From the IMG/VR virus record IMGVR_UViG_2778261535_000001, positions 1 to 7,239 of that record: 7,239 bases of DNA; one strand, written 5' to 3'. The notes below the pieces were generated by a model that worked only from the letters and a program-made list of their open reading frames with translations, was not told where the DNA came from and searched no databases. The position numbers were made by a program, and so were the translations under genes. Below, in pieces: positions 1 through 3,139 of the stretch (positions within the stretch are counted from its first letter, which is position 1; each line of letters opens with the position of its first letter). This DNA comes from a virus. Taxonomy: Duplodnaviria; Heunggongvirae; Uroviricota; Caudoviricetes.

Positions 1-828
1 ATTAACGTCCCATGCAGGTCGCTTGCTTGTAACTAGTTCGCCATTAACAGGAATGACTTTTCCTTCGACCAACCATTTCCCGTTAATATAGGTATTCCTG
101 AAAAACGTTCTGGAGGTAAAATAAGTTTTACCCTGCATATCAATAATTCTAGATGAAATAGCAGCCTCAAGTGATTCAAAAGCTAAAGAATCATTTGTAA
201 CACCATCACCTACAGCACCAAAATCTTTAGGGCTAACTGTGTCACGCATCTTATCCTGGAACGTTCTGTATACTGCTCCAGAACCATACTGAATAAACCA
301 ACCAAAACCACCAACAACTCCAGCGATTGCAGCATCGACATAATTACGCATTGAGCGATTATTTACAGCATCCTGCTCAAGTGATGGATCTGCAAGGTTA
401 GAAATTTTGTTTTGCTTTGCATCGTAATATTTTGCAAGCAAAGATGGTTTCATCAATGCGCGTCTGAACCACCCAAAACATTGCTGGATCAGCATCGTCA
501 GGTAGTCAAAGGCATCTTCATGCACTTCGGGGAAAAACTTTCCCTGATTGCGGAGGTCTGTCTCCTGCACTACATCAAGCACACGATCTATCGTAATTAG
601 CCAGCCAACAGCAAGCGGCGACGGAAGAACCACAGAACCGCCACTATAAGTGCCCGCCCCTGTTACCGTATAACCGGTATCCAGAACCAATTCTGTTACG
701 TTCCCGTTCAAGTCAGACACCTGAACAACCAGGTCGGATTTTTTGAAAATACGGAAGGTATACGGAAATGATGTCGTAACGCCGTTACCGGTGTATTCGT
801 TGTGGTCAACTTCGGTTGAGACCGTCAT
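1..828 (-). CDS. Tailspike / tail fibre protein, N-terminal 276 codons (gene continues beyond window start)
   Basis: Not in the ORF track because no stop lies in the window; hand translation of the minus strand from ATG 828..826 is open for 276 codons down to position 1. RBS GGAGA sits 6-7 nt upstream (plus 836..840). N-terminus MTVSTEVDHNEYTGNGVTTSFPYTFRIFKKSDLVVQV fits the pattern of the T7 gp17-type particle-binding domain (Y-x2-[DN]G-x4-F-x3-F ... VV). A DAVNNRSMRNYVD motif follows, then SPKDFGAVGDGVTNDSLAFESLEAAI, typical of the first rung of a pectate-lyase-like beta-helix receptor-binding or depolymerase domain. Confidence 0.75.
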   Translation of the reverse strand, partial: MTVSTEVDHNEYTGNGVTTSFPYTFRIFKKSDLVVQVSDLNGNVTELVLDTGYTVTGAGTYSGGSVVLPSPLAVGWLITIDRVLDVVQETDLRNQGKFFPEVHEDAFDYLTMLIQQCFGWFRRALMKPSLLAKYYDAKQNKISNLADPSLEQDAVNNRSMRNYVDAAIAGVVGGFGWFIQYGSGAVYRTFQDKMRDTVSPKDFGAVGDGVTNDSLAFESLEAAISSRIIDMQGKTYFTSRTFFRNTYINGKWLVEGKVIPVNGELVTSKRPAWDVN

Positions 829-931
829 GTTAAATCTCCAGATAGTCGCAGCACCCGTTGCGCCGCATATCTGGTTATTCTATTACCTGAAAAACCACAT
901 ATGGATAGAAAGACTGTAAATACGAATAGAT

Positions 932-948
932 ATTACCTTTCAGGTAAT
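932..948. promoter_or_regulatory. Operator-like 17-bp palindrome, site A (ATTACCTTTCAGGTAAT)
   Basis: Perfect 7-bp inverted arms ATTACCT / AGGTAAT around a 3-bp centre. Lies in the divergent intergenic region between the tailspike start (828) and the small + gene (1024). Near-identical copies at 2051..2067 and 2144..2160; an isolated left half-site ATTACCT at 882..888. Confidence 0.5.
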
Positions 949-985
949 TTGCAAAACGTGCTGGATAGCAAACAAATTATTTGAT

Positions 986-1003
986 ACTGTATAAATATAC
1001 AGT
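986..1003. promoter_or_regulatory. LexA (SOS) box overlapping a candidate promoter
   Basis: ACTGTATAAATATACAGT contains a perfect CTGT-N8-ACAG core (987..1002) with an AT-rich centre, matching the enterobacterial LexA consensus TACTGTATATATATACAGTA. A -35-like TTGATA (981..986) abuts it and a weak -10 TATTGC (1004..1009) follows at 17-nt spacing. The box is about 20 nt upstream of the start codon at 1024. Confidence 0.7.
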
Positions 1004-1023
1004 TATTGCATGGAGAAGATAAG

Positions 1024-1281
1024 ATGCAGCAGTATCACTATCCACTGGAAGACGGATTTACCGAAAGGATTCACACGCCGGGAGGCGTCAGATCACTGGT
1101 GGAGGGATCGCACTTGATGAAATTACTCCGGGATCTCGATAAGGATGGATTTAATGTCGATGGCCCACTTGCCGAACTGACTGCACTGATTAACTACGTC
1201 ACCAGCTCACAGATGTCTATGCAGGATCTGCAAACACATCTCGACTATTGTGCCGAACAACTACGAAAACAAACCACATAA
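1024..1281 (+). CDS. Small antirepressor-like protein (85 aa), stand-alone paralogue of the Ant C-terminal domain
   Basis: ATG at 1024 with RBS GGAG (1012..1015) 8 nt upstream; the ORF track's TTG at 1006 is judged a less likely start. Stop TAA at 1279..1281. Residues ~17-80 (HTPGGVRSLVEGSHLMKLLRDLDKDGFNVDGPLAELTALINYV...DLQTHLDY) align with the C-terminus of the 2429..3139 protein (HSPSGVLGLTESSLLMNLLNQLQEDGHDVSGAAAELTTMFCYI...DIQTHAEY) at roughly 40-45% identity by eye. Confidence 0.65.
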   Translation: MQQYHYPLEDGFTERIHTPGGVRSLVEGSHLMKLLRDLDKDGFNVDGPLAELTALINYVTSSQMSMQDLQTHLDYCAEQLRKQTT

Positions 1282-1303
1282 AGAAAAGGCCGCAAGAGCG
1301 GCC
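1275..1303. terminator. Bidirectional intrinsic terminator between convergent genes
   Basis: Perfect hairpin GGCCGC-AAGA-GCGGCC at 1288..1303. On the minus strand it is followed by TTTTCTTTATG (complement of 1275..1287); on the plus strand by the moderately T-rich TATCGTTTCGCTTTG. It sits between the + stop (1281) and the - stop (1303..1305). Confidence 0.55.
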
Positions 1304-2031
1304 TATCGTTTCGCTTTGTGCTCGTCCCAGCACGTTTTGCACCATGCCATTAAGCCATCCGCATTTTGATTATTAGGGTAAAAACTGGTTCGTTTTCTGC
1401 GGACATTACAAATTGGGCACCACTTCATATGGCGTGTATTCTTTGGGCCATCGAGACACCTTGCACACCACTTAGTCAATCCATCTGGATTTTTTGACGA
1501 TTTCCTGAATTTTTCATATGGAAGGTTTATTCTGCATCGCAAACACTGCTTGCGGGCACTTGAAACTTCGTTAGCTGATTCTTCTTTTGACGGCGATACA
1601 GAAGGTATTCTTGCTGGCTCTGATACTGCCTGAGGTGCTTTTTTAGGTGACTGAGACGATATGTCATCACCAGGGAATCTGTCATGATATGCCGGACGCG
1701 TTGACACTCCAGGTGGAAGCTCTGCTGTAAATGGCTTTGGCTGAATCAGCGCCCTCTCTTTTGCTGACTCCTGCTGTTTATAATATGTCTGGATTACCGA
1801 TATATCATAAGCAGGATGTACAGAAATATCCGGCGCATTACCTCCAGTTTTTTGAAACTGAGTGGAGGTGTGGTCTATCACCTGTGTACGATTAATCGTT
1901 ATTTCTCCATCTTCGGTCTTTATCGTTTTGCGATGATTAACGACTGTGCGATCAGAGACCTTAGTCCTGTTCTGGTTGATAACGTAAATAATCACCGTAA
2001 CAACACCAACAACTATCCAGAAAACTTCCAT
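1303..2031 (-). CDS. Membrane-anchored protein with two tandem C4 zinc ribbons (242 aa), function unknown
   Basis: ATG at 2031 with RBS GAGGAAAA upstream; stop TAG at 1303..1305. One N-terminal hydrophobic helix (FWIVVGVVTVIIYVI) followed by a cluster of basic residues, which by the positive-inside rule puts the C-terminus in the cytoplasm. A long Ser/Pro/Lys/Glu-rich low-complexity linker follows. The basic C-terminal ~80 aa carry two repeats of C-x2-C-x22-C-x2-C, each with DGLxxWCxxC (CLRC...NPDGLTKWCARC and CPIC...NADGLMAWCKTC). The gene looks AT-richer than its neighbours by eye. Confidence 0.7.
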   Translation of the reverse strand: MEVFWIVVGVVTVIIYVINQNRTKVSDRTVVNHRKTIKTEDGEITINRTQVIDHTSTQFQKTGGNAPDISVHPAYDISVIQTYYKQQESAKERALIQPKPFTAELPPGVSTRPAYHDRFPGDDISSQSPKKAPQAVSEPARIPSVSPSKEESANEVSSARKQCLRCRINLPYEKFRKSSKNPDGLTKWCARCLDGPKNTRHMKWCPICNVRRKRTSFYPNNQNADGLMAWCKTCWDEHKAKR

Positions 2032-2050
2032 TGCTTTTCCTCACAATAAC

Positions 2051-2067
2051 ATTACCTTAAAGGTAAT
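2051..2067. promoter_or_regulatory. Operator-like 17-bp palindrome, site B (ATTACCTTAAAGGTAAT)
   Basis: Same ATTACCT / AGGTAAT arms as site A. Lies 20-36 nt upstream of the start codon of the minus-strand zinc-ribbon gene. A degenerate fourth site with only the right arm (CTTTCAGGTGAT) is at about 2074..2085. Confidence 0.5.
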
Positions 2068-2143
2068 ATCTTGCTTTCAGGTGATCAAGCGTTAAACGCA
2101 ATCAACCAAATACGGTTGATTTTAATATTTATCCGCGTTTATC

Positions 2144-2160
2144 ATTACCTTTGAGGTAAA
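2144..2160. promoter_or_regulatory. Operator-like 17-bp palindrome, site C (ATTACCTTTGAGGTAAA)
   Basis: Arms ATTACCT / AGGTAAA (one mismatch). Directly abuts the -35-like TTTACA at 2161..2166 of the candidate plus-strand promoter for the ant leader. Centre-to-centre distance from site B is 93 bp. Confidence 0.5.
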
Positions 2161-2428: not shown

Positions 2429-3139
2429 ATGGCTAATGCTCAAACTGCCATCTTCAAATTTGAATCTGTTAACCCTATCCGTTCCATCATTATCGATGGC
2501 CAACCATGGTTTGTAGCCCAAGACGTTTGTAGTGCGCTGCGTATCCAAAACGTCACCCAAGCACTTGAAAAACTGGATGATGATGAAAGGTCTATGTTCA
2601 ACATAGGGCATGAACATCGTGCAATTTTTGACAGCCGAGTAAAAGAGATCAACATCATCTCCGAGTCAGGCCTCTACACACTGATCCTCCGCTGCCGCGA
2701 TGCAGTAACACCAGGCACTATCCCCTACCGCTTTCGTAAATGGGTTACAGGTGAGGTTCTTCCTCAGATCCGCCGCACCGGAAGTTACATTAAAAACTCG
2801 CTCCCGCAGGAAGAACGCATAAAGATGGTTGCCGACCAGGTAGCCAACGCCACAGCATCAGCAGTGATGCAGGCAATGAAGGTAGAGAACAAAACCTACA
2901 GCGCCCCACTGAAGCCCGGCTACCGCAGCCTGATTCATTCGCCGTCTGGTGTTCTCGGCCTGACGGAGAGCTCACTGCTGATGAATCTGCTGAACCAGTT
3001 ACAGGAAGACGGGCACGACGTATCGGGCGCGGCGGCGGAACTGACCACCATGTTCTGCTACATCGTCGGTGTGAGTAAATGCCTGCGTGATATCCAGACC
3101 CACGCGGAATACATCAACGACAAGGCAGGGTTCTTCTGA
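2429..3139 (+). CDS. BRO-N domain antirepressor (Ant-like), 236 aa
   Basis: ATG at 2429 with RBS GGAG (2416..2419) 9 nt upstream; the ORF track's GTG at 2414 is judged less likely. Stop TGA at 3137..3139. N-terminal half carries the hallmark BRO-N motifs (FKFESVNPIRSIIIDGQPWFVAQDVCSAL, ALEKLDDDE, ISESGLYTLIL, FRKWVTGEVLPQIRRTGSY). The C-terminal ~80 aa are homologous to the 85-aa protein at 1024..1281. Confidence 0.88.
   Translation: MANAQTAIFKFESVNPIRSIIIDGQPWFVAQDVCSALRIQNVTQALEKLDDDERSMFNIGHEHRAIFDSRVKEINIISESGLYTLILRCRDAVTPGTIPYRFRKWVTGEVLPQIRRTGSYIKNSLPQEERIKMVADQVANATASAVMQAMKVENKTYSAPLKPGYRSLIHSPSGVLGLTESSLLMNLLNQLQEDGHDVSGAAAELTTMFCYIVGVSKCLRDIQTHAEYINDKAGFF

Follow-up and report, generated by a model that had tools for sequence, protein, structure and literature searches.

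Palindromic sites in the antirepressor region of an ε15/phiV10-like prophage as probable operators of the master repressor Rep

Genes and palindromes of the antirepressor region

The DNA analysed here (the window) is a stretch of 7,239 nucleotides from an ε15/phiV10-like (Uetakevirus) E. coli prophage, a podovirus type that integrates at guaA. It begins with the N-terminal part of a tailspike gene (1..828, minus strand), with an ε15 gp20-type head-binding domain. A small antirepressor, Ant, of 85 aa is encoded at 1024..1281 on the plus strand and is a homologue of the crystallised SPC32H Ant (5d50_E, E = 1.3e-47, 84 residues aligned). At the promoter of this gene lies a LexA box, TACTGTATAAATATACAGTT (985..1004; 0 expected by chance), which is invariant in an alignment of seven phages. 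An accessory open reading frame (ORF) of 242 aa on the minus strand (1303..2031) encodes a transmembrane protein with a double zinc ribbon, for which Pfam gave only a sub-threshold Stc1 match. On the plus strand, a leader RNA then carries c4-a1b1 targets (2183-2235; 44.3 bits, just under the gathering score of 46.7), an isrK-like element with a terminator (2196-2272; 67.2 bits, gathering score 50) and a C4 antisense RNA (2297-2380; 66 bits, gathering score 45), followed by the gene for a Bro-N antirepressor of 236 aa (2429..3139, plus strand; Bro-N, 1e-19). In its C-terminal part (residues 155-228) this antirepressor is paralogous to the small Ant (42% identity over 74 aa, E = 1e-15).

The window was searched for ATTACCTNNNAGGTAAT with up to 3 mismatches, using 200 dinucleotide shuffles as the background. 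Exactly three matches were found where 0.24 were expected by chance, and none of the 200 shuffles reached three, which establishes that the three 17-bp palindromes of the original prediction (ATTACCT-N3-AGGTAAT, at 932, 2051 and 2144) are real. Site A (932..948; ATTACCTTTCAGGTAAT, 0 mismatches) stands between the tailspike and small-Ant promoters, in the gap from the tailspike start (828, minus strand) to the small ORF at 1024. Site B (2051..2067; ATTACCTTAAAGGTAAT, 0 mismatches), with the start codon of the zinc-ribbon ORF 19 nt downstream, and site C (2144..2160; ATTACCTTTGAGGTAAA, 1 mismatch), which overlaps the −10/+1 region of the predicted c4/antirepressor-leader promoter, share the gap between the start of the zinc-ribbon ORF (2031, minus strand) and the antirepressor leader. 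According to the ORF list of the window, all three sites are non-coding and lie between ORFs, in line with their predicted absence from coding sequence. None of them fits the LexA pattern CTGT-N8-ACAG, and the LexA box at 985-1004 is a separate control element outside the palindrome family.

The additional half-sites that had been predicted fared unequally. At 882..888 there is an exact ATTACCT within a block that is invariant in the seven-phage alignment; here, on the minus strand, AGGTAAT is fused to a −10-like hexamer, TAGAAT (878-883), before the tailspike gene, and this conserved lone half-site may have a function of its own. The other half-site, placed at about 2074-2085, comes down to AGGTGAT at 2079-2085, the right arm of a degenerate half-operator (2069..2085) that lies 18 bp from site B and has 5 mismatches in the 12 core positions of the full 17-mer. 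A tandem offset of 17-18 bp such as that between this element and site B recurs at the TerS and OR sites; as a candidate half-operator the element is weak. Isolated ATTACC hexamers turn up six times in coding parts of the window as well, and for that reason little weight can be given to a single half-site.

The motif and its promoters in related prophages

A search for further copies, as the original prediction had proposed, was run on seven related genomes. The core ATTACC-N5-GGTAAT occurred 14-18 times in each of them, against an expectation of about 1.5, and 8-13 sites per genome had at most one mismatch, compared with an expectation of 0.07-0.12. Nearly all copies were intergenic, flanking the repressor gene and marking almost every operon start. 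In a complete E. coli prophage with the architecture of the window, 13 of the 17 sites fell in the 7.7% of the DNA that is non-coding (P = 6e-12). In this prophage the Rep gene has sites on either side, and further sites stand ahead of int, the replication-distal operon, TerS, the head operon, the tailspike, the lysis/oac genes and the two antirepressor modules. Thus the regulon that had been proposed to join the two control regions of the window finds support, the motif flanking the Rep gene and marking operon starts in all relatives, but it reaches well beyond three sites and takes in the whole genome: each prophage counts about 11 operator loci and 13-17 sites in all. Prophages of this ε15/phiV10-like group were present in 553 of 5,426 complete E. 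coli genomes (about 10%), and for such prophages the motif could serve as an annotation rule that locates promoters and operon boundaries.

Comparison with the operators of related prophages, likewise proposed at the outset, led to the same place: seven of these 17-mers already carry the label 'protein_bind: repressor / lysogeny' in the RefSeq record of ε15, and their consensus is that of sites A, B and C. Site A is orthologous to one of them (ε15 19895-19911, 'protein_bind: repressor') and to SPC32H 20012-20028, and in the seven-phage alignment its arms are invariant and its centre variable. Site B is present at the same distance from site C (93 bp) in TL-2011b and the SCU-116 prophage. The full-text literature that was searched yielded nothing useful on the motif or the word 'operator' in this phage group, and the ZX5 paper only speculates about operators (PMC9782041).

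The 7-bp arms of the original description are perfect or near-perfect in the window, but the core conserved across the family is the 6-bp arm ATTACC, in which T2, A4, C5 and C6 are invariant; the seventh base, T, is only a preference of the E. coli group (41/68 half-sites). The 5 central bases vary across the family while the arms stay invariant, a pattern that marks a protein site and not an RNA stem. This bears directly on whether the palindromes could be RNA or DNA hairpins (terminators or processing sites), or a dispersed repeat with no protein partner: although each can form a stem of 6-7 bp with a 3-nt loop, such a stem is weak, at −4.2 to −5.3 kcal/mol, and lacks a T-run, the arms never co-vary across the family but are simply invariant, positions 7/11 often cannot pair, and the sites are found on promoters or upstream of them, not where genes end, so that we give this explanation practically no credence. 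Examined as intrinsic terminators, the palindromes lack the GC-rich stem followed by a T-run.

Site C overlaps a predicted sigma-70 promoter of the c4/isrK/Bro-N-ant operon (2116..2145, plus strand; −35 TTGATT, 18-nt spacer, −10 TATCAT), the −10 of which ends at operator base 2, as it also does in phiV10, Tyrion and BUCT711. The seven genomes contain 14 operator pairs with a common layout, in which Op1 is followed by 18 nt, TTGACA or TTGATT, 17 nt, and a −10 whose last two bases begin Op2. Site C shares the register of these 14 paired-operator promoters, scoring 9/12, a value reached by 0.2% of random positions. No canonical register was found at sites A and B, where the scores of 6-7/12 are within the random range, and this leaves the target promoters of A and B uncertain. 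Neighbouring operators were spaced at 62 bp in 13 cases and at 93 bp in 3, which corresponds to two and three units of 31 bp.

Candidate proteins for reading the sites

From the sequence evidence above and below, sites A, B and C are very probably operators for the master repressor Rep, of the SPC32H/ε15 type, which is encoded outside the window. Every complete relative has rep, at about 27 kb from this region. The relatives that supply the link to Rep are 94-97% identical to the window, and prophage L005, which is 96.6% identical to it over this region, carries rep. Rep has about 195 aa and carries its HTH domain at the N-terminus. The phiV10-type HTH protein gave a full-length match to the SPC32H Rep (5d50_A, 6.6e-42), and Pfam detected on Rep only HTH domains and no RecA-cleavable peptidase domain. 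The original proposal of repressor operators whose protein is encoded elsewhere is therefore well borne out by the motif flanking the Rep gene in relatives, the ε15 annotation and the overlap of site C with a promoter −10. Its dimeric repressor is another matter, because PMC9638917 (citing Kim 2016) describes the homologous repressor as binding palindromic DNA as a tetramer, and the 62/93-bp pairing is in keeping with this. The tetramer is reported to form through a p53-like looping/tetramerisation domain (PMC9986798). For exactly this motif, the experimental standing of Rep comes from database annotation and secondary descriptions.

The HTH segment NLVNRW is invariant among Reps that are only 42-78% identical overall, and because it matches the invariant half-site we counted it in favour of a shared specificity. 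Within the genus, all four Rep classes go with one and the same motif, which makes covariation there uninformative, and distant repressors were compared instead. In the Pseudomonas phage PseuP_224, a Rep-like N-domain is fused in cI to an unrelated peptidase C-domain, and the gene has perfect ATTACC-N4-GGTAAT sites on both sides. The C-terminal domain of this cI reads as an S24 peptidase by inspection, not by profile. IMG/VR contigs also contain repressors whose N-domain is about 35% identical, and 2-3 sites stand immediately ahead of such a gene. In distant repressors that share the motif, the residues of the putative recognition helix follow another pattern, so that specificity can be inferred from the helix sequence only softly.

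A Cro-like protein, gp39, is encoded divergently from rep and might be the main reader, in which case the sites would serve lytic-phase down-regulation and not lysogenic repression. This protein is at least as conserved as Rep (58-84% identity across the genus, with an invariant HTH-like segment AGTTSHYIQ.HLTG), its homologue adjoins distant repressors of the Rep-N type that share the motif, and it co-occurs with the motif in most lineages. In lambdoid switches, moreover, operators are common to Cro and CI, and we counted this for gp39. On the other side, PseuP_224 and Mcat9 combine a Rep-like N-domain and half-site repeats with no detectable gp39 homologue, ε15 labels the sites as repressor sites, and the paired 62/93-bp geometry suits a tetramer that binds DNA through two heads, the form described for Rep. 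Taken together, these points make gp39 improbable as the main reader; the sites are likely to be shared by Rep and gp39, and gp39 is not likely to be their sole reader.

The sites also precede late units (TerS, the head genes, the tailspike and the lysis genes), and gp49/p55, a conserved 'transcriptional regulator' of the genus, could in principle act on them as a late activator, as could another conserved regulator or a host factor, with the sites being activator sites for late operons. Against this, the sites are most crowded on either side of rep, where they overlap the −10 of strong consensus promoters (TTGACA-17-nnnnAT), a geometry of repressors and not of activators, and most of the distant loci with the motif lack a gp49 homologue. 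We therefore consider activation by such a factor very unlikely.

The original prediction had further named the membrane-tethered zinc-ribbon protein (1303-2031, minus strand) as a possible binder. Site B does lie immediately ahead of the gene for this protein, and zinc ribbons are capable of binding nucleic acid; nevertheless, the gene is missing from five of the seven genomes (phiV10, ε15, SPC32H, BUCT711 and Tyrion), each of which has 14-18 copies of the motif, and in TL-2011b the corresponding region carries only a misc_feature 'similar to hypothetical protein' and no CDS. The sites, besides, cluster around rep and not around the zinc-ribbon gene, and this protein can be set aside with near certainty as the reader of the palindromes.

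Proposed immunity circuit and comparison with known systems

With Rep as the probable reader, the following circuit can be proposed. Rep would recognise the half-site ATTACC in the arrangement ATTACC-N5-GGTAAT. Rep bound at site C would block RNA polymerase, because this site lies across both the −10 and the start point of the promoter for the c4-RNA leader and the Bro-N antirepressor. Site B, 93 bp away on the same helix face and just upstream of the divergent zinc-ribbon gene, is probably bridged to site C by a single Rep tetramer with two DNA-reading heads, and the small loop would enclose both back-to-back promoters; the canonical 62-bp operator pairs may be bridged by Rep in the same way. 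Both the 62-bp and the 93-bp pairing fit bridging by a tetrameric Rep. Site A, between the tailspike promoter and the LexA-controlled small-Ant promoter, most likely silences the late tailspike promoter or anchors a loop, and the assignment of promoters to A and B is, like the loops and the binding of Rep itself, what we infer from the occurrence, distribution, conservation and promoter overlap of the sites and from the homology of Ant and Rep to the crystallised proteins. Upon SOS induction, LexA would leave its box, Ant would be made and would bind the C-terminal domain of Rep, and Rep would then leave all operators at once.

The difference between SPC32H and SPC32N falls in the LexA box, and this mutation leaves the A-type operator of SPC32N intact. 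SPC32N was considered as an argument that site A does not repress the ant promoter, but it is not decisive, as constitutive Ant would inactivate Rep anyway.

In such a circuit, a single repressor would keep essentially all transcription units silent, among them the genes of both its antagonists, and immunity would be coherent: of the two Ant paralogues, one is LexA-controlled and the other c4-RNA-controlled, and each gene has a putative Rep operator beside it. A bolder reading, which we offer tentatively and think may well prove wrong, takes 31 bp as the unit of operator spacing, with two units (62 bp) at canonical promoters and three (93 bp) between B and C, so that one Rep tetramer would clamp each promoter, or at B-C two back-to-back promoters, in a micro-loop. 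On this reading the operator, invariant throughout the genus although the Reps are only about 42% identical overall, would make all these prophages mutually immune at the level of DNA recognition, and immunity specificity and induction would be decided at the interface of the Rep C-domain with Ant and by the two Ant paralogues. The principle itself is already known: ε15 carries an annotation of the motif, and the Rep-Ant pair has a crystal structure. What is added here, modest but open to testing, is the constant 62/93-bp spacing of the operators and an operator sequence that does not change across the genus.

The closest known systems are the putative repressor operators of ε15 and the SPC32H Rep-Ant switch (PDB 5D50, 5D4Z), which have the same 17-bp ATTACC-N5-GGTAAT palindrome, a site in the same position between the small ant and the tailspike, a matching LexA-box-controlled small Ant, and the same Rep family with its invariant HTH segment. 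They differ in that their Rep is only about 42% identical to that of the phage type of the window, in that they lack the extra module in which sites B and C are seated (the zinc-ribbon gene, the c4-RNA leader and Bro-N-Ant), and in the preference of the E. coli group for the seventh arm base (ATTACCT).

Phages P1 and P7 resemble the window in two respects: the operators of C1, their primary repressor, are scattered over the genome and not confined to OL/OR, and immI is an antirepressor operon with a C4-family antisense RNA, a1/b1-like leader targets and a primary-repressor operator at its promoter, the place taken here by site C. C1 is, however, unrelated to Rep, and the phage of the window is a podovirus integrating at guaA. 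The P1 C1 operator, which is asymmetric (ATTGCTCTAATAAATTT), had no match in the window at up to 3 mismatches.

As for CI of lambda and P22, its operators too are 17-bp sites of two-fold symmetry, placed on either side of the repressor gene and across the −10/−35 of divergent early promoters; both systems have a divergent Cro-like gene, and cooperative binding to separated sites is presumably a property of Rep as well. Unlike CI, Rep is inactivated by an antirepressor and lacks a RecA-cleavable peptidase domain; its putative operators also stand at late, lysis, int and antirepressor units, and they form pairs at a fixed 62-bp spacing that enclose a promoter.

Three palindromes in the window and their spread across the phage group

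A scan of the window with ATTACCTNNNAGGTAAT at up to three mismatches returned exactly three matches, namely sites A (932-948) and B (2051-2067), which are perfect, and site C (2144-2160), which carries one mismatch. Shuffled versions of the window are expected to contain 0.24 such matches, and three were reached in 0 of 200 shuffles. As all three sites lie between ORFs, the motif scan, the shuffles and the ORF map bear out the original prediction of three near-identical palindromes, none in coding sequence. The window is part of an ε15/phiV10-like (Uetakevirus) temperate podovirus, its closest relatives being Escherichia phage TL-2011b (94% identity) and E. coli prophages (96-97%). It contains, in this order, the tailspike gene start (828 to 1, minus strand), site A, a LexA box (985-1004) at the small-Ant promoter, an 85-aa ORF (1024-1281) matching SPC32H Ant, an antirepressor of known crystal structure (5d50_E, E = 1.3e-47), a convergent 242-aa transmembrane/zinc-ribbon ORF (1303-2031, minus strand), sites B and C, a leader 3' of site C, a Bro-N antirepressor gene (2429-3139) and, to the right of it, the virion genes. 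Site A is located between the tailspike and Ant promoters; site B lies 93 bp from site C, and the zinc-ribbon start codon begins 19 nt downstream of B. A GC-rich hairpin (AGGCCGCTCTTGCGGCCT) was also observed at 1287-1304, where the small-Ant and zinc-ribbon genes converge; it gives a terminator-like match on the minus strand only, and its place would suggest a role in terminating both genes.

A search for further copies in whole genomes of relatives yielded 18, 15 and 19 matches in TL-2011b, phiV10 and ε15, respectively (1.1-1.5 expected), mostly intergenic. With at most one mismatch, the core ATTACC-N5-GGTAAT occurs at 8-13 sites per genome in seven genomes, against about 0.1 expected. A complete E. 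coli prophage, L005 (L-numbers denote compared genomes or contigs), shares the gene order of the window; 13 of its 17 sites fall in non-coding sequence, which makes up 7.7% of the prophage (P = 6e-12). The sites flank the HTH repressor gene on both sides, follow the Cro-like gene and the Bro-N ant gene, precede int, the replication-distal operon and the head operon, and lie at the TerS start; they also occupy the tailspike/Ant gap (A), the zinc-ribbon/ant-leader gap (B and C) and the stretch that separates the lysis genes from the acyltransferase gene. The ε15 RefSeq record contains seven "protein_bind: repressor / lysogeny" features that are exactly these 17-mers, and the one at 19895-19911, between gp19 (Ant) and the tailspike gene, is the orthologue of site A. 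Sites B and C are new instances. In addition, a tandem site pair, 18 bp apart (L002 86-120; L005 29195-29229; L003 11-45), stands upstream of TerS in ε15 and inside the annotated TerS 5' end in phiV10-type records, which suggests that the TerS start in the latter is annotated too far upstream.

Rep as the candidate reader of the sites

SPC32H, an ε15-like phage, carries the same sites, and its Rep (5d50_A) is homologous over the full length to the HTH protein of phiV10-type phages (6.6e-42). Rep is reported to bind palindromic DNA in tetrameric form, each of its DNA-binding pairs arising across dimers, and tetrameric Ant is reported to strip it from DNA (PMC9638917); its tetramerisation domain is described as a p53-like DNA-looping fold (PMC9986798). 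The four Rep classes share 42-78% identity overall, with NLVNRW invariant in the N-terminal HTH, matching a half-site that is invariant at T2, A4, C5 and C6. Distant phages provide an independent link between the Rep N-domain and the motif. The cI protein of Pseudomonas phage PseuP_224 joins a Rep-like N-domain to an unrelated C-terminal domain, which by inspection alone we take to be a LexA-type (S24) peptidase, and perfect ATTACC-N4-GGTAAT sites flank cI on both sides (L009 2421-2436, 3322-3337), with a 4-bp centre instead of the 5-bp centre of the ε15/phiV10 group. Likewise, repressors with about 35% N-domain identity on IMG/VR contigs of uncultured viruses have two or three motif copies directly upstream of their genes (L027 5505-5595; L063 6139-6194). 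Overall, these comparisons point to a broad family of repressor DNA-binding domains with a conserved ATTACC/GGTAAT half-site, and by sequence and position A, B and C are members of the putative ε15/SPC32H Rep operator set.

Rep is probably not the only reader, as the small Cro-like gp39, encoded divergently from rep, putatively shares its operators. It is conserved as strongly as Rep and usually co-occurs with the motif, and lambda Cro shares operators with its repressor; no gp39 homologue was found in PseuP_224. The zinc-ribbon protein, which combines a transmembrane helix at its N-terminus with two zinc ribbons of the form CxxC...CxxC and had been proposed as a possible binder, is excluded because its gene is missing from five site-carrying genomes (phiV10, ε15, SPC32H, Tyrion and BUCT711); this accessory gene is restricted to certain E. 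coli members (TL-2011b, with a misc_feature as its only annotation, and the SCU-116 prophage). Among the remaining rivals, a late activator or another regulator was rejected given the repressor geometry on consensus −10 elements, an RNA hairpin or terminator given the weak stems (−4 to −5 kcal/mol), the absent T-run and arms that are invariant rather than co-varying, a LexA box given its different pattern, and the P1 C1 operator because it is absent.

Spacing of the probable operators and predicted promoters

All seven genomes share a single layout for the operator pairs that lie downstream of rep and those that precede the replication-distal operon: Op1, 18 nt, TTGACA/TTGATT, 17 nt, and a −10 element whose last two bases are bases 1-2 of Op2, with 62 bp from Op1 to Op2. 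Site C stands in the Op2 register of a promoter TTGATT-18-TATCAT (2116-2145), a register kept in phiV10, Tyrion and BUCT711 with a score reached by only 0.2% of random positions, and would therefore occlude the −10/+1 region of the predicted promoter for the c4 leader and the Bro-N antirepressor. Register scoring found no canonical promoter register at sites A and B, so their exact targets can only be inferred. Across genomes, neighbouring sites are 62 bp apart in 13 cases, 93 bp in 3 and 17-18 bp in 8. The first two spacings are two and three times 31 bp, a length of about three helical turns; paired sites would therefore share one helix face, which is what bridging by a tetramer would require. 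At the replication-distal promoter of seven genomes (Op2 at L005 31405-31421; L001 8288; L002 35131; L003 35968; L006 36033; L007 4209; L008 37326), 2-3 nt separate the right arm of Op2 (GAGGTAAA) from the ATG of the gene that follows, and thus operator DNA also encodes the Shine-Dalgarno sequence of that gene.

Antirepressor modules and the tailspike control region

Judged from sequence, A, B and C would work like the Rep operators of ε15 and SPC32H, which are without the accessory module where B and C sit. As in P1, primary-repressor operators are dispersed and an antirepressor operon is under a C4-family RNA; unlike in P1, Rep is unrelated to C1 and its operator to the C1 operator. P1-type immI RNA elements were observed in the Bro-N antirepressor leader (2183-2380) of this ε15-like podovirus, comprising a1/b1-like targets (44.3 bits, just below the gathering score), an isrK-like element (67.2 bits) ending in a terminator (2250-2272), and a C4 antisense RNA (66 bits). 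The matches for isrK and c4-a1b1 overlap, suggesting that they are one element. Towards its C-terminus, the Bro-N antirepressor (residues 155-228) is paralogous to the small Ant that LexA controls (42% identity, E = 1e-15), so the phage carries two Ant-type domains under differing controls, LexA and c4 RNA. What may be added to the known systems is the fixed 62/93-bp geometry, an operator invariant genus-wide despite Rep divergence, and the presence of an Ant-type domain in both antirepressor genes with a Rep operator beside each.

Seven phages that otherwise diverge share an invariant block at 877-905 of the window, whose minus-strand sequence is AT.CATAT..GGTT.....GGTAATAGAAT. Here a single operator half-site runs into a −10-like hexamer (TAGAAT) that lacks a consensus −35. 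The block may represent a tailspike promoter that depends on an activator, and ε15 has an annotated IHF site nearby. Finally, two positions distinguish SPC32H from SPC32N in the 601-bp ant-tailspike stretch compared (19600-20200). One of these, at 19960 (L006/L131), is a G to T change in the LexA box (CTGT to CTTT), and the Rep operator beside this box is unchanged.
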